DNA from: a virus
Lineage: Duplodnaviria > Caudoviricetes
Direction: 5' to 3' (one strand)
Virus record (IMG/VR): IMGVR_UViG_3300022555_000004
Length of the DNA stretch: 64,000 nucleotides
This document shows, one piece after another, positions 15,418 to 25,258 of this stretch (position 1 is the stretch's first letter; each line of letters starts with the position of its first letter). The position numbers were made by a program, and so were the translations under genes. Under the pieces are notes generated by a model, which saw only the letters and a program-made list of their open reading frames with translations, was not told the DNA's origin and did no database searches.

Positions 15418-15885
15418 TTGAATAAGAAAGGAAATGGAAAAATGACGGATAACATTTTTAATGTGTTATTTCTTGATTTTGACGGTGTTCTCAATAGGTA
15501 TGGTCATTTAAAGAGTTGTGGGCTTTTATCGAAAAATTGTATTTCAAAATTAAATACGATTGTGGAGCAAACAGAAAAGTTAAGGATTGTAATTTCAAGT
15601 TGTTGGAGGATGGGTCGTTCAGTTGAAGTGTTACGACATATCTTGAAAAATGGTGGATTTAAGTATTCAAATTTTATTATTGATACTACGTTGTTTGGTG
15701 TTGAACTGAGCACAAGGGGTGATGAAATTAAGGAATGGCTTAGTCGAAATAATCGTGTAAATAAATTTGTTATTATTGATGATAATTCTGATATGGCACC
15801 TTATATGGATCGATTGGTTCAAACCAATGGTAAAATGGGAATTACAGATAATGATGTAAATGAAGTTGTAAATTTGTTCAAATAG
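15418..15885 (+). CDS. HAD phosphatase, Swiss-army-knife RNA-repair type
   Basis: LFLDFDGVLN, IVISSCWR, FVIIDD. Confidence 0.85.
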   Translation: MNKKGNGKMTDNIFNVLFLDFDGVLNRYGHLKSCGLLSKNCISKLNTIVEQTEKLRIVISSCWRMGRSVEVLRHILKNGGFKYSNFIIDTTLFGVELSTRGDEIKEWLSRNNRVNKFVIIDDNSDMAPYMDRLVQTNGKMGITDNDVNEVVNLFK

Positions 15886-16079: not shown

Positions 16080-16108
16080 TTGACAAACATGAATAAATAA
16101 GGTATAGT
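16080..16108 (+). promoter_or_regulatory. sigma70 promoter for Ubl
   Basis: TTGACA-17bp-TATAGT. Confidence 0.8.
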
Positions 16109-16139: not shown

Positions 16140-16418
16140 ATGGAAAGAGAAGTTTGGGGTGGTGAAAATTTTCAGTATAATGAAGGCGCAATCCAAACTG
16201 GCATTATGGTAAACGGAACGACAATTCCGGTTGAACCAGGCGCTAGTTTTAGGGATACAATCAAAAACGTGTCGCTTGATGCGGGTTTTGGTAAGTATCG
16301 TGTGTTTCTGAACGGTGCTGAAATTCGTCCGTCTGAAGCGCCCGCTCTGTTCAACGCAGGCGATAAAGCCGAAGTGCGCGCATATGACGATGCCGGAGCT
16401 ATAATCCTTTGCCAGTAA
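16140..16418 (+). CDS. ubiquitin-like (beta-grasp) protein precursor
   Basis: IMVNG..IPV...YRVFLNG.EI...F.AGD..EV.AYDDAG plus a 6-aa extension; adjacent to E2/E1/JAB. Confidence 0.75.
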   Translation: MEREVWGGENFQYNEGAIQTGIMVNGTTIPVEPGASFRDTIKNVSLDAGFGKYRVFLNGAEIRPSEAPALFNAGDKAEVRAYDDAGAIILCQ

Positions 16419-16549: not shown

Positions 16550-16578
16550 TTGACAAATGGAACAAAACGTGGTATTAT
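16550..16578 (+). promoter_or_regulatory. sigma70 promoter for E2-like gene
   Basis: TTGACA-17bp-TATTAT. Confidence 0.75.
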
Positions 16579-16608: not shown

Positions 16609-17475
16609 ATGGCTGATACCAGCAACATTAAAGATAAGCTTAAAGCATATCATGACAGTATGATTCAAACACTTGAAACGTTGAAAATTGACGATCTCAA
16701 AACAACGACTGTTACGATACGTCTAGGCAATAAAATATATGATTTGGTTGCTTCAAAAGAATCCGTGATTGTTGATGAAGATCAGATCAGGAAAGAATTT
16801 GAAGATAAACTAACAGAAAAACGTTTGAATATCAGGGATACAATTAAGGCTAAAATGTCCGAAGTTTCGGCATTAGTGTCGTCTATTCAAAGTGAATATG
16901 AACGAAAAGAAAAAATCCTAAAGGATACAATGTCGAAAGCGGCACCTATGCCAGAAGTAACATGGTCACATGCACAACGTGGGTTGTCCATTGTTAAGGG
17001 TGGTTCGCGTGGTGAAATTATTTGGATTGTCAAAAGAACGTATAATCCTAAATTCATGGATCATAAGAGTATTGAACCGTTATATGTCAAGAAATTAATG
17101 ACCCATATTTATATCAGAATTACAACTAGGGATAACGCTGTTATGGGTGTGTCTTCACACTATATGAATAATATGGATTATTTTGACCACTATCATCAAG
17201 CCCGTCCTGATTGTTGGGGAAATTGGAAATACCCTAAATCGTGGAATACCGCGGATGATATTATCAAAATCGCTGATGATGCCACATCTGTAATGGAAAA
17301 CATTAACACAATGTCCGTTGCACACAGGACGCCATCGTTGATGCCACGGTTGGAAACTTTACGCCGTCATTTAGCCAAAGATCCGATCGCTCCACCTGTT
17401 GTTAAGGTTGGTGTGTCTGATATGAGAGAAGGACTTGGTATGAACGCTCCAAATAGCGATATTTGGGGAAACTAA
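16609..17475 (+). CDS. coiled-coil plus prokaryotic E2-like protein
   Basis: N-terminal helical region; C-terminal FDHYHQARPDCWG with Cys202. Confidence 0.65.
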   Translation: MADTSNIKDKLKAYHDSMIQTLETLKIDDLKTTTVTIRLGNKIYDLVASKESVIVDEDQIRKEFEDKLTEKRLNIRDTIKAKMSEVSALVSSIQSEYERKEKILKDTMSKAAPMPEVTWSHAQRGLSIVKGGSRGEIIWIVKRTYNPKFMDHKSIEPLYVKKLMTHIYIRITTRDNAVMGVSSHYMNNMDYFDHYHQARPDCWGNWKYPKSWNTADDIIKIADDATSVMENINTMSVAHRTPSLMPRLETLRRHLAKDPIAPPVVKVGVSDMREGLGMNAPNSDIWGN

Positions 17476-17517: not shown

Positions 17518-17546
17518 TTGACATAACAGGGGTTTTGTGTTATAAT
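17518..17546 (+). promoter_or_regulatory. sigma70 promoter for E1-JAB
   Basis: Perfect TTGACA-17bp-TATAAT. Confidence 0.85.
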
Positions 17547-17577: not shown

Positions 17578-18159
17578 ATGAGCCGTTTATATGAACGACA
17601 AGAAAGTTTAAAATTGAATAAGGATATTAGCATCACCGTGATTGGTTGTGGTGGTGTTGGTTATTGGACGGCAAAATTTGCTGCAATGTCTGGAATTGAA
17701 AAGATTTATTTGTTTGATTTCGATGTTATTGAGGAACATAATTTGAATCGGTTGGATTTACCGATAAGTGCAATTGGTCAGAACAAAGCGGCCGTTACGA
17801 AATCGGTTATCAATTTTTTACGTCCTGAAACGACCGTGTTTGCACTGCCTTTCAAATTTAAAGAAGGTCTTTTCAAAATGACAGATTGGATTATTGATTG
17901 CACAGATCGTTCCAATGTTCAAGAGGAAAATCAAGCTATCGCAAAAGCCAATGGTGCAAAATATTTGAAGGTTGGGTATAACGGTGAACATATCACTTTA
18001 TCAAATGTTGTTGCCGAGTGGGGTGAGTCTACCGATGGGTACACGGTTATTCCATCGTGGGTTGTTCCTGCCACCGTTGTGGCCGCACTTGCCGTTGGAA
18101 AAATCATGAAATATTATGATAAAGAGATTTCTACCAATTTAAAAGATTTGTATAATTAA
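17578..18159 (+). CDS. ThiF/E1-like adenylating enzyme
   Basis: VIGCGGVG, DFDVIEEHNLNRL, NKA, IIDCTD. Confidence 0.92.
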   Translation: MSRLYERQESLKLNKDISITVIGCGGVGYWTAKFAAMSGIEKIYLFDFDVIEEHNLNRLDLPISAIGQNKAAVTKSVINFLRPETTVFALPFKFKEGLFKMTDWIIDCTDRSNVQEENQAIAKANGAKYLKVGYNGEHITLSNVVAEWGESTDGYTVIPSWVVPATVVAALAVGKIMKYYDKEISTNLKDLYN

Positions 18160-18163
18160 GATT

Positions 18164-18979
18164 ATGGGAAAAAAGAAAAATAGGAGAAAAAAGAAAATGA
18201 ATAAAATATATAGAGCATATAATTTTCAATCAGTTGAAAATCAATTGGATGCACTTGAACCGATTGCGGCCGATGATGGGTGGGGTAACACCGCTGATGA
18301 TTTGAAGGTAGTTTCCACTTGTGGACGTAAACCAGAAGGAGCATTGACAATTTTATTCAGTCGGATTGCCAAAGCAAAGGTTGATATTCTAATGAAGAAA
18401 TATCAAAATCTGGAATGGTTAGCATATCTAATTGGCGATGCTAGTAACCGATTTGTACGAGATATTGTTTTACCTGAGCAAGAAGTAACGTCTGGAGCGG
18501 TTACTGTGACTGGCCCTCAGCCGAGTTCTGATGTAATGGGTGTCATTCATTCCCATCACAGCATGGGAGCGTTCTTTTCGGGGACAGATGATGCTTATAT
18601 CAATCAAAATTATGATATTTCGGTTGTCGTTGCCCACAATGGAATTAAAGCACAGGTACGATGGGTAACGCCTTGTGGATATAAGGTTGTGTCGGATGGT
18701 CAGGTTATTGTTGAAAGCGAAAATCTGTTTGATGAAAACGATTTTATCAGCCAAGTGGATACGGTGGTTACACCTAAAACCTTCAACCTGATTAAATCCG
18801 TATGTGGAACAGGAACAAAAATTCCTGTAAAACATCGAAAAGGTATAAGAGGATTGTCAGGATTGTCAGGATCGTATATGCCAAAAGTTGATATTGATGA
18901 AGAAACATCACCTGAACATCCAGATGAAGGTGAAAATTTGGCGGATATGCTCACACGGGATTTCTGTAACAGGTCATAA
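18164..18979 (+). CDS. JAB/MPN metalloprotease (deubiquitinase-like)
   Basis: EWLAYL...GVIHSHHSMGAFFSGTD (E...HxH...SxxD). Confidence 0.9.
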   Translation: MGKKKNRRKKKMNKIYRAYNFQSVENQLDALEPIAADDGWGNTADDLKVVSTCGRKPEGALTILFSRIAKAKVDILMKKYQNLEWLAYLIGDASNRFVRDIVLPEQEVTSGAVTVTGPQPSSDVMGVIHSHHSMGAFFSGTDDAYINQNYDISVVVAHNGIKAQVRWVTPCGYKVVSDGQVIVESENLFDENDFISQVDTVVTPKTFNLIKSVCGTGTKIPVKHRKGIRGLSGLSGSYMPKVDIDEETSPEHPDEGENLADMLTRDFCNRS

Positions 18980-21955: not shown

Positions 21956-24900
21956 ATGAATAAAGGAATAGAAAATTCACAATTGAGTGAAATGGCAAAA
22001 AGAATATTTTTGGATTTGTATAGTTTCAGTGATGAAACTATTGACGATACATTCAAACGGGTTTCAAAAGAATTTGGTAACGATGATGATGCTAAATTAG
22101 CATATGACTTAATGAAGAAAAATATATGGCGTCCATCAACACCGATATTTTTTAATTCGGGGTCAACGAAAAAGATTTTTTCGGCATGTTGGGTGGTAAA
22201 CCTTGATGATAGTATGGATAGTATATATGATGTAGCAAATGTTGCAAGAAAAATCTTTCAGAGCGGTGCTGGCATTGGTATTCCTATTGGCAAGTTGCGT
22301 GAAAAGGAAGCTAATATATATGAAGGTCAGGAGAAAACTGATAATGTTCCCAGCGGACGTTCAAGCGGCCCAATATCATTTATGACATTATTTGATGCTG
22401 TTGGGGCAACAACAAAATCTGGTGGTAGAGCAAGACGAGCAGCTATTATGTGTGCTATGCCCATAAACCATCCTGATATTATGGAATTTATCGAATGTAA
22501 AAGTGTTGATGGTGTGTTGTCAAATATGAATATATCTGTATCTGTTACAGATGACTTTATGCAAGCATTCAAAGATAATATACCATATTCTTTGATATCA
22601 CCCGCCAATGGCCCTGTAAAGGAAATAAATGCTAGAGTTATTTGGGATAAGATTGTTGATATGGCACACAAGACTGCCGACCCTGGCGTTTTGTTTATTG
22701 ATACTATCAACAAATTCAATCCTCTGAAAAAAATATTGAAAATTGATTGCACAAATCCTTCGTTGAGGGCAGGAACAAAGGTTATTACTGATGGTGGTAT
22801 ATATCCGATAGAACAATTAGAAAACAAAAAATTTCTTGTTATAAATCAAAAGGGTGAATATTCACCAGCAAAATGCTTTTTATCAGGAAAAGAGAAAGAA
22901 TTGTTTGAAATAACATTAATGGGAGGTAAAAAGTATTATTCAACTGCCGAACATAAATGGCCAGTGTTGAATAACAACATATATGAAAAAAGACAGACAA
23001 CCGACCTCAAATCAGGCGATTACCTACCTATTGTAAGAATGAATTCTCTTGGATATGGTGTGAAGGGCAATTATGATGATGGTTTCGTTATTGGATGGAA
23101 TCTAGGAGATGGATGGATAACAGATAGAAAGGATAATGGTAAACGTCAGTATGGGTTTATATTTAGTAATGAAGATATTGAAAATGGAATATATGATAGG
23201 GTGATGAAAAAAATAACATCAATAACAAATAAAGTATATAATCCTTCAAAGATAGATGGTTGCATTGAATTTAATACAACAAATAATGATTTAGATACTT
23301 TCTTTAGGTCGTATGGTGTTGATAAAAAATCAACTGGGATGCCTTCTAGTGTATGGACAACAGCATCAGAGGAATTTAGAAAAGGGTTGATTGACGGTTT
23401 ATTTTCATCAGATGGTTATGTCGATAAATCTGGAAGCCGATGTGTTTTTTGCAGTAGTAATTATAAATTAGCATCAGATGTTTCAGAAATATTAGGATTT
23501 TATGGAATCAAAACAAGATTAACAGAGTCAACATCATCTAATATATCGTTTCCAAATGGAAAATTATATGGCAGAGCTTATACTAGATATTTCGTACAAT
23601 TGTTCACATCATCATTGATGCATTTTAGAGACATATTTACTCTTTCAAATAATAGGAAAAATGAGTTGATGTGGATGAAAAAATCATTAAATAAAGGTGG
23701 AATGGTATATGATAATATTAAAATAAAGAGTATAACCAAAACAGATATAAAAGAAGATGTGTGGGATATTAGTGTTTTTGATGATACACATACTTTTAAA
23801 CTTTCTCATGTGATCACAGGAAATTGCGGCGAACAGCCTTTGATTCCATATACATCTTGTAATTTGAGTTCAATCAATTTACATAGATTTTGTAGTAATG
23901 ATGGATATAATTTTGATGGACTATATAAAACAGCATACAATGTTACAAGATTGATGGATAATCTTATTGATAATATGGAATTTCCAGATGAACGGTTCAA
24001 AATTAATGTATTGAAGTATCGTCCAATAGGTGTTGGTATTATGGGGTTGGCGGACACTTTATATGAAATGGGTTTGCCATATGATGATAAAGAAGGACAG
24101 ATATTTGCTGAAAAATGTATGAAGATTGTTACTACAGCCAGCTTAGAGGCTAGTTCTGATATAGCAAAGGAAAAAGGAACATTTACTGATTATAAACTTG
24201 TAGAAGATGATGTTTTAGAAATTGTATCTTCTTTTATTGATGACCCATCAGTATTAGAAAAAATTAAAAAATATGGTTTGAGAAATTGTCAACACACAAC
24301 GGTGGCGCCAACCGGAAGTATTGCTTTATCATGTGATTGTTCATATGGTATGGAACCGAGTTTTGGTTTAGTATTTCAAAAAAGATTGGTTGAATCTGGT
24401 GATACATATATTTTAGTCAATCCAATATTCAAAAAGAAGTATGAAAACGAATCATGGTATACACCTGAAATGATTGAGAAAATCGTTCAAAACGGAGGGT
24501 CATTGAAGGGTATTAGAGGAATACCAAAAGAAGTACGTGAAGTATTTGTTGTTGCTCATGATATTAAAGCTAAGGATAGAATTGATATGCAGTCTGTATT
24601 ACAAAAACACGTATCGACTGCCATTAGTAGCACGACAAATTTACCATCCACAACAACAAGGGATGAAATATCTGAAATATATAGATATGCTTATCAAAAA
24701 GGACTGAAAGGTGTTACAATTTATAGGGATGGTTCTAAAAAATTGCAACCCATTTCTTTTTCAAATAAAGAGAAAGTAGAGGTTGTTCCTAATTTTAAAC
24801 GACCTACAAAATTATTAGCAGTTAGACATGAAGTTGAAACCGGCAATGGTAAAATGTATATCATCGTATCAACACATGATGGCAAACCTGTAGAAGTTTT

Positions 24901-25258
24901 TCTTTCAATGGGTAAATCTGGACAATTATTCAATAGTTTTTGTGAGGGTCTTGGAAGAACCGTATCCATTGCGTTACAACACGGAACGCCGGTAGCGGCA
25001 ATCATCAAAACCCTTGAAGGAATAAATTCAGACCGTCCTAATTGGTTCAGGTTTGAGGAAACAGATAAAAAGCCAACACAAATATTGTCGATTCCAGATG
25101 CTATAGCAAAATTATTGGAACGATATTACCTGAATGATAATAAAATCATCAATGTTGAATCAGAAGGTGAATTATGTCTAAAATGTGGTAGATATGCTGT
25201 TATACCTTTTGAAGGATGCCATATATGCACATCATGTAATGATAGTCGGTGCGGATAA
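21956..25258 (+). CDS. nrdJ: class II (B12-dependent) ribonucleotide reductase with intein
   Basis: SACWV, GGRARRAA, NP|CGEQPL, YRPIGVGIMG, TVAPTGS, C-terminal TSCPD-like domain and Zn ribbon. Confidence 0.9.
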   Translation: MNKGIENSQLSEMAKRIFLDLYSFSDETIDDTFKRVSKEFGNDDDAKLAYDLMKKNIWRPSTPIFFNSGSTKKIFSACWVVNLDDSMDSIYDVANVARKIFQSGAGIGIPIGKLREKEANIYEGQEKTDNVPSGRSSGPISFMTLFDAVGATTKSGGRARRAAIMCAMPINHPDIMEFIECKSVDGVLSNMNISVSVTDDFMQAFKDNIPYSLISPANGPVKEINARVIWDKIVDMAHKTADPGVLFIDTINKFNPLKKILKIDCTNPSLRAGTKVITDGGIYPIEQLENKKFLVINQKGEYSPAKCFLSGKEKELFEITLMGGKKYYSTAEHKWPVLNNNIYEKRQTTDLKSGDYLPIVRMNSLGYGVKGNYDDGFVIGWNLGDGWITDRKDNGKRQYGFIFSNEDIENGIYDRVMKKITSITNKVYNPSKIDGCIEFNTTNNDLDTFFRSYGVDKKSTGMPSSVWTTASEEFRKGLIDGLFSSDGYVDKSGSRCVFCSSNYKLASDVSEILGFYGIKTRLTESTSSNISFPNGKLYGRAYTRYFVQLFTSSLMHFRDIFTLSNNRKNELMWMKKSLNKGGMVYDNIKIKSITKTDIKEDVWDISVFDDTHTFKLSHVITGNCGEQPLIPYTSCNLSSINLHRFCSNDGYNFDGLYKTAYNVTRLMDNLIDNMEFPDERFKINVLKYRPIGVGIMGLADTLYEMGLPYDDKEGQIFAEKCMKIVTTASLEASSDIAKEKGTFTDYKLVEDDVLEIVSSFIDDPSVLEKIKKYGLRNCQHTTVAPTGSIALSCDCSYGMEPSFGLVFQKRLVESGDTYILVNPIFKKKYENESWYTPEMIEKIVQNGGSLKGIRGIPKEVREVFVVAHDIKAKDRIDMQSVLQKHVSTAISSTTNLPSTTTRDEISEIYRYAYQKGLKGVTIYRDGSKKLQPISFSNKEKVEVVPNFKRPTKLLAVRHEVETGNGKMYIIVSTHDGKPVEVFLSMGKSGQLFNSFCEGLGRTVSIALQHGTPVAAIIKTLEGINSDRPNWFRFEETDKKPTQILSIPDAIAKLLERYYLNDNKIINVESEGELCLKCGRYAVIPFEGCHICTSCNDSRCG
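22760..23824 (+). mobile_element. intein with LAGLIDADG endonuclease (355 aa)
   Basis: TNP|SLRAGTKV...HVITGN|CGEQ; IGWNLGDG and LIDGLFSSDG motifs. Confidence 0.9.

Follow-up and report, generated by a model that had tools for sequence, protein, structure and literature searches.

A minimal phage-encoded E1-like protein without a catalytic cysteine and with an invariant tyrosine in its crossover loop

A catalytic cysteine has long been held necessary for E1 enzymes. The genome of a T4-like lake phage (Duplodnaviria; Caudoviricetes) encodes an E1-like protein without such a residue next to a ubiquitin-like protein (Ubl), an E2-like protein and a JAB peptidase, which raises the question of how the Ubl could be activated and passed on. 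The DNA analyzed here, referred to as the window, is a stretch of 64,000 nt from the IMG/VR record IMGVR_UViG_3300022555_000004. The four co-oriented genes are located amid T4-type replication genes, which in the window include those for an HU-like protein, the clamp-loader subunits gp44 and gp62, T4 RNase H and ribonucleotide reductase. The genes and the putative regulatory sites of the cluster are as follows.

16080..16108, plus strand: sigma-70-type promoter-like site before the Ubl gene, TTGACA-17-TATAGT (11/12 matches; a consensus match only)
16140..16418, plus strand: Ubl (ThiS-like beta-grasp), 92 aa, assigned by ESM-Atlas structural neighbours, without a Pfam match
16550..16578, plus strand: sigma-70-type promoter-like site with TG extension before the E2-like gene (11/12 matches)
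16609..17475, plus strand: E2-like protein, 288 aa, with a UBC-fold C-terminal domain and a single cysteine, C202
17479..17511, plus strand: hairpin with a 15-bp stem in the E2-E1 intergenic region, resembling a terminator or an RNA-processing site
17518..17546, plus strand: promoter-like site with perfect sigma-70 consensus before the E1 gene, TTGACA-17-TATAAT with TG (12/12 matches)
17578..18159, plus strand: minimal E1, a core ThiF/MoeB-type adenylation domain, 193 aa (Pfam PF00899)
18164..18979, plus strand: JAB/JAMM metallopeptidase, 271 aa (Pfam Prok-JAB)

In a T4-like phage, the near-perfect sigma-70-like sites and the hairpin suggest that the cassette may be expressed early and driven by the host polymerase. 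GenBank phages yielded no DNA match to the window, and their protein matches were weak and partial. PADLOC returned generic Cap2 E1-E2 Rossmann matches only, and PHROGs returned matches to three families of unknown function. In NCBIfam, nothing came near the cut-offs; the matches to PRTRC ThiF and PRTRC protein A were weak and far below threshold.

The 193-aa protein belongs to the E1-like/ThiF superfamily of adenylation domains (Pfam ThiF, PF00899; E 1.5e-21, 77.1 bits, cut-off 28.1). Its AF2 model (pLDDT 87) aligns over residues 1-193 with the adenylation domains of E1 enzymes (Z 20-22, rmsd 2.3-2.9 A, 180-192 of the 193 residues aligned). The matches include SAE2, UBA3, MoeB, ThiF, Atg7, Uba1, UBA5 and MccB, with UBA5 as the top Foldseek match. 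The P-loop glycines G23, G25, G26 and G28 are invariant among the relatives, as is the N-terminal pair R7-Q8. The same holds for R58, K70 and D110, the equivalents of MoeB R73, K86 and D130, which are listed as ATP/Mg residues (PMC12355090). The conservation of the P-loop, of R58, K70 and D110 and of R7-Q8 points to a protein that is probably competent for adenylation. The first-pass annotation had described it as a minimal E1, in agreement with the complete E1 adenylation fold and with its place in a Ubl-E2-E1-JAB cluster. The protein is a complete core adenylation domain without decorations, that is, without a zinc site and without a catalytic cysteine.

Searched with a profile of the family, 1.8 billion cluster representatives yielded 183 clusters at E <1e-30. 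Clustered at 50% identity, the family comprises about 180 clusters, and its members with a recorded taxon are mostly viral. The close metagenomic relatives of the E1 (191-219 aa) number more than 480, and many lie on contigs of 150-240 kb. The distant set consists of 143 full-length sequences among the matches listed, aligned with the E1 of the window. Among the 50 IMG/VR loci fetched (some contigs were fetched twice), the order Ubl-E2-E1-JAB is found in approximately 37, and a JAB-like ORF follows the E1 gene in every one. The literature searched holds no account of this phage E1 family and no characterized member; the 2009 survey of the E1-like superfamily was outside the scope of the search. 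A plasmid match (H31) was set aside: its cluster, which comprises a pair of ThiF genes together with an ABC transporter, is unrelated.

The E1 contains two cysteines in total, C24 in the GCGG of the P-loop and C108 in the DCTD motif. No cysteine follows residue 108, there are no CxxC pairs, and the stretch AEWGESTDGYTVIPSW is present as quoted in the first-pass annotation. At approximately 1% cysteine, 85 cysteine-free residues occur by chance with a probability of ~0.4 (own arithmetic), so that the single sequence is unremarkable. Judging from the alignment, the signal in the absence of a loop cysteine lies at the level of the family, not in the single sequence: within region 143-161 of 149 relatives, no column has a cysteine in more than three sequences. 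The claims that no cysteine follows DCTD and that both the CxxC pairs and a thioester cysteine are missing are thus borne out: C24 and C108 are the only cysteines of the window's E1, the lack of CxxC pairs and of a loop cysteine extends to the 149 close relatives and, apart from the Cys-type sequences described below, to approximately 180 more distant clusters, and no conserved loop cysteine is found among the 149.

Neither of the two remaining cysteines is a plausible nucleophile, given their positions and their variability. C24 is kept in 114 of the 149 relatives and is otherwise V, A or T. C108 is kept in 148 of the 149 close relatives and is replaced by T, A, S, F or V in 20 of the 143 distant relatives among the matches listed. 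In the hhalign comparison with E. coli MoeB, C24 corresponds to L39, inside the GxGxxG loop, and C108 corresponds to C128 of the LDCTDN motif, beside the Mg-binding aspartate.

17896..17907, plus strand: DCTD motif (D107-C108-T109-D110) with the Mg-binding Asp; C108 equals the non-catalytic MoeB C128

C24 and C108 were ruled out as catalytic residues on these grounds. An essential role of an N-terminal cysteine, which the first-pass annotation had named as the finding that would overturn its reading, is not what the alignments point to: as far as sequence can show, both residues are variable and occupy non-catalytic positions. By its residue inventory, the E1 cannot form an E1~Ubl thioester.

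Attention is thereby drawn to the segment that takes the place of the crossover loop in the phage E1.

18004..18060, plus strand: equivalent of the crossover loop, residues 143-161, Cys-free, with invariant W148, G149, G154, Y155, S160 and W161
18040..18042, plus strand: TAC codon of Tyr155, the proposed acyl-accepting nucleophile; invariant Tyr, by analogy to BubCD Y370

In the AF2 model, residues 143-161 join the last core strand (138-142) to the helix 162-177, occupying the place of the crossover loop; the pLDDT is <50 for residues 148-157. The hhalign alignments to MoeB and to Bub-type E1s end at approximately residue 114-137, short of the loop, and a phmmer search of the PDB with E1 residues 118-193 gave nothing relevant. 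Tyr155 is found in 149 of 149 close relatives; in the window's E1 it stands within ..DGYTVIPSW, part of the very motif quoted in the first-pass annotation, where it was overlooked. In distant phage E1+JAB loci with 24-39% identity, the loop still contains G-Y. Among the matches listed, 134 of the 143 distant full-length representatives have Tyr at position 155. All nine representatives without it have Cys154 followed by Gly instead ("CGVTIPSW" versus "GYTxIPSW"; among the matches listed), and none of the Tyr-type sequences among the distant representatives aligned, again among the matches listed, has Cys154. In the same wider set of 143 sequences (among the matches listed), W148 is Trp in 107 and S160 is Ser in 118; on the latter count, Ser160 was ruled out as the nucleophile.

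All nine Cys-type sequences group in a single clade (SH-aLRT 88), which in a midpoint-rooted quick tree is nested next to the group of the window's E1. This single clade indicates that the Tyr/Cys exchange was one evolutionary event, which was thereafter kept across deep and long branches. Two Cys-type loci, L053 and L054, encode the same E2, with FEHYH..DCWG and FTHYH..DCTG, and the same JAB. The tyrosine, or the adjacent cysteine, in a mobile loop over the adenylation site is most simply read as an acyl acceptor. The invariant Tyr155 could instead have a role in binding or gating.

Further features of the Cys-type loci were observed. A Ubl was not detected upstream of the E2-like gene in either locus (L053:2821-3141, L053:3141-4010; L054:40-1167), and the E2-like proteins of Cys-type loci measure 289-375 aa and differ in their N-terminal regions.

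The partner proteins were characterized individually. For the 92-aa Ubl, Pfam gave no match; structural similarity to ThiS-family clusters was found in the ESM-Atlas (TM 0.58-0.72 over residues 16-88). The protein ends in ..YDDAG, followed by the 6-residue tail AIILCQ. Among 27 orthologues, ..D[VE]AG is the prevailing end, followed by 0-7 further residues, which fits trimming by the JAB peptidase. A few orthologues lack the ..AG end, namely L005:3770-4021, L015:1845-2138, L033:1930-2280 and L016:2771-3049, which end in ..YDTPASS, ..YDKAA, ..YDEASAS and ..YDVPGVE, respectively. Such variant ends may mean that the activated C-terminal residue is not always Gly. The JAB protein matches Pfam Prok-JAB (E 4.7e-07, 30.1 bits, cut-off 25). 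Its JAMM motif is E84...H129-x-H131...S139-x-x-D142, and all five residues are invariant in 41 of 41 orthologues.

The E2-like protein consists of a long N-terminal helix or coiled coil (~1-110) and a C-terminal UBC-fold domain (~112-280). Its AF2 model has a pLDDT of 77. VIA-align placed residues 108-283 on approximately 25 UBC E2 structures over 113-136 residues, with moderate Z values of 5.0-5.9, and a viral Prok-E2_D cluster is a structural neighbour in the ESM-Atlas (TM 0.55). When the whole model is used in Foldseek, the N-terminal helix dominates the matches. The protein has no Pfam or PDB sequence match, and a Pfam search of all 25 E2 orthologues at E up to 10 gave no match to Prok-E2 or UQ_con. 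The sole cysteine, C202, is part of a motif that is invariant in the orthologue alignment (F192-x-H194-Y195-H196..C202-W203-G204). This accords with the pattern of UBC/E2 proteins, in which the cysteine lies on the loop behind the beta-meander and a histidine precedes it. The 288-aa protein is accepted as an E2 on its fold and motif, with a moderate Z and without a sequence-profile match. Prediction of a complex of two E1 chains with Ubl 1-86 and E2 105-288 gave scores of 0.21 and 0.00 against a mark of 0.32, which is neutral either way.

A precedent for E1s of this kind is provided by the Bub (bacterial ubiquitination-like) systems, formerly 6E/DUF6527 (Ye, Gong, Chambers & Corbett 2024, PMC11601596). 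The E1s of these systems, among them BubCD of Citrobacter sp. RHBSTW-00271 (PDB 9ea4/9ea5) and BubBD of E. coli ZDHYS365, have no loop cysteine and one invariant loop tyrosine, which is Y370 in BubCD. The substitution Y370F abolished conjugation both in vitro and in cells, and it was concluded that Bub works via tyrosine and serine oxyesters (PMC11601596). JAB-E1 fusions of BubCD architecture were recovered (8e-50 for their profile versus Citrobacter BubCD); in the alignment, their invariant tyrosine coincides with that of BubCD, whose surroundings (..ERGYITG..) form a G-Y context like that of the phage E1.

The E1s of Bub and of the phage are alike in that a single adenylation domain carries a cysteine-free loop with one invariant tyrosine in G-Y, and both belong to systems that also comprise a Ubl, an E2-fold protein and a JAB peptidase. 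In other respects they differ. With 193 aa, the phage E1 is smaller than the Bub E1 domain (approximately 285 aa), and it lacks the CxxC pairs that are kept in eight aligned Bub-type JAB-E1 fusions. Bub E1s are fused to JAB (type I) or E2 (type II), whereas the phage E1 stands alone; a search for longer proteins yielded only distant fused forms. The partner E2 has an invariant Cys with HxH in the phage but Ser in Bub. For BubE (DUF6527, PF20137), which Bub operons encode, Pfam gave no match in the four cluster genes and three flanking ORFs. The phage E1 is encoded by a phage, behind putative early-type promoters, in contrast to the location of Bub in a defence island. The phage E1 also shows no special sequence affinity to BubCD: the search E value is 6e-06 for BubCD and about 1e-14 to 1e-13 for MccB, Uba1, TcdA and UBA5. 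Given this lack of affinity, the shared tyrosine may be convergent. The tyrosine solution common to both may have arisen by convergence or may be very old. By architecture, the phage E1 is not a Bub E1; by analogy, it would work like one.

With MoeB and ThiF, the phage E1 shares the core fold over the whole protein (Z ~21), the P-loop and the conserved Arg, Lys and DCTD Asp, and the systems are also alike in their substrate, a ThiS-like small protein ending in Gly. The phage E1 differs from MoeB/ThiF in the absence of Zn-binding CxxC pairs, in being approximately 55 residues shorter, in the absence of a loop cysteine and of a sulfur-transfer context, and in its linkage to E2 and JAB. The loop cysteines are C184 in ThiF and C187 in MoeB. 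UBA5, Atg7 and Uba4 resemble the phage E1 in being small non-canonical E1s whose nucleophile, in the phage E1 a proposed one, is placed in the crossover loop close to its C-terminal end and not in a separate Cys domain. In UBA5, this nucleophile is Cys250 (PMC11601596), compared to a tyrosine at a nearby position in the phage E1. The anti-phage Bil systems (BilABCD) consist, like the phage cluster, of four separate genes for Ubl, E2, JAB and E1, but the phage E1, unlike that of Bil, is a single 193-aa domain without a catalytic cysteine. The phage E1 is neither a MoeB/ThiF protein nor a thioester-forming E1 nor a BilD-type E1.

A hybrid relay, with a tyrosyl oxyester on the E1 followed by a cysteine thioester on the E2, is regarded as the likeliest mechanism and is put forward with moderate confidence. 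Tyr155 is proposed as its nucleophile on account of its invariance, the Tyr/Cys exchange and the Bub precedent. We infer all chemical steps, as well as the E1 dimer and the target, as follows. The JAB peptidase would trim the short tail of the Ubl and expose Gly86. The E1, which as with other single-domain E1s is probably homodimeric, would adenylate this residue with ATP/Mg. The hydroxyl group of Tyr155 on the mobile crossover loop would then attack the adenylate, giving an E1~Ubl tyrosyl oxyester (an aryl ester). The loop would swing out for transfer of the Ubl onto the UBC-fold E2, where Cys202 would hold it as a thioester before it is handed on to a target. The first-pass annotation had proposed that the adenylate is passed straight to the E2 cysteine. 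Its premise that no E1 thioester is possible stands; the omission of a covalent E1 step is probably wrong, as such a step is likely kept through Tyr155.

That proposal corresponds to a reading in which the E1 only adenylates, E2 Cys202 attacks Ubl-AMP within the E1 active site, and Tyr155 serves in docking, gating or positioning of the Ubl tail. A loop wholly without cysteine and a single, invariant E2 cysteine agree with it, and acyl-adenylates made by MccB are captured by exogenous thiols to give thioesters (PMC11118369). However, the exchange is left unexplained by direct transfer, since the sole clade without the tyrosine gained an adjacent cysteine and kept the same E2, and the only studied Cys-less E1s, those of Bub, require the loop tyrosine. 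We know of no E1-E2 pair described as dispensing with an E1 intermediate, in a two-step cascade from adenylate to E2. Direct transfer is considered unlikely. A lower probability is given to the Tyr155 oxyester passing the Ubl directly to the target, or to the E2-like protein being the main acceptor or an adaptor and not a true thioester carrier. Such a bypass would accommodate E1+JAB pairs with neither Ubl nor E2 within 4 kb upstream (L008, L023), as well as the long N-terminal coiled coil on the E2-like protein. The invariant HxH..C on a UBC fold, however, is the signature of an active E2, and the gene order with E2 is kept at most loci.

Finally, the cluster might not conjugate proteins at all and might serve in thiocarboxylate sulfur carriage of the MoaD/ThiS type or in C-terminal modification or cyclization as by MccB, PaaA or TcdA. 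Several of the best matches by sequence or fold, namely MccB, PaaA, TcdA and MoeB, do their chemistry without an E1 thioester, and the Ubl resembles ThiS. Yet no rhodanese, cysteine desulfurase or cofactor/thiamine genes are found in the cluster, which is located amid T4-type replication genes, and the E1 is tightly linked to a JAMM peptidase and to a UBC-fold protein with a catalytic-type cysteine. A function without conjugation is accordingly rated very improbable, and the hybrid relay is retained as the preferred reading.

The catalytic-cysteine rule for E1 enzymes was broken only in 2024, by the Bub systems. A catalytic tyrosine in the crossover loop is already known from Bub; the phage family differs in being minimal, unfused and zinc-free and in having a Cys-E2. 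At 193 aa and without a zinc site or extra domains, it is the smallest E1 design seen in this analysis. In the proposed relay, the E1 would carry the Ubl as an oxyester and the E2 would carry it as a thioester, a mixed form intermediate between Bub, where every step uses oxyesters, and canonical cascades, which rely on thioesters throughout. The exchange of Tyr and Cys at adjacent positions of the loop, seen in a single family, provides matched natural pairs for the question of nucleophile choice. The location of the cluster amid T4-type replication genes and behind putative early-type promoters hints that ubiquitin-like tagging is used by the phage on its own behalf, beyond being a target of such systems in defence.

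Several loci of the family deviate from the typical arrangement. In L008, L009, L012 and L023, E1+JAB pairs (~61% identity to the E1 of the window) have no recognizable Ubl or E2 within 4 kb upstream, and unrelated small Cys-containing ORFs are located there instead. In the distant phage E1+JAB loci L047, L048 and L050, a protein of approximately 300 aa with 20-30 cysteines is encoded directly upstream of E1 (L047:3022-3990, L048:3217-4038, L050:3068-3967), and a small ORF ending in ..AG plus one residue is found near the E1 gene. The Cys-rich protein may be a zinc-finger or RING-like E3 partner. In L041 (1468-2514), an E1 of the family with the loop GYTIIPSW continues into a C-terminal extension of ~150 residues; the fusion has 348 aa and 14 cysteines, mostly within the extension. 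A 278-aa ORF resembling GIY-YIG-type homing endonucleases is inserted between the E2 and E1 genes of a related phage, L004 (4112-4948, minus strand; the same contig as L020).

In the window itself, positions 15418-15885, just upstream of the cassette, encode a 155-aa protein that matches HAD_SAK_2 (E 8e-26), the HAD domain of 'Swiss Army Knife' RNA-repair proteins. The ORF of the ribonucleotide reductase large subunit (window 21956-25258) has 1100 aa and contains a long insert after approximately residue 275, which in appearance is intein-like with an endonuclease domain.
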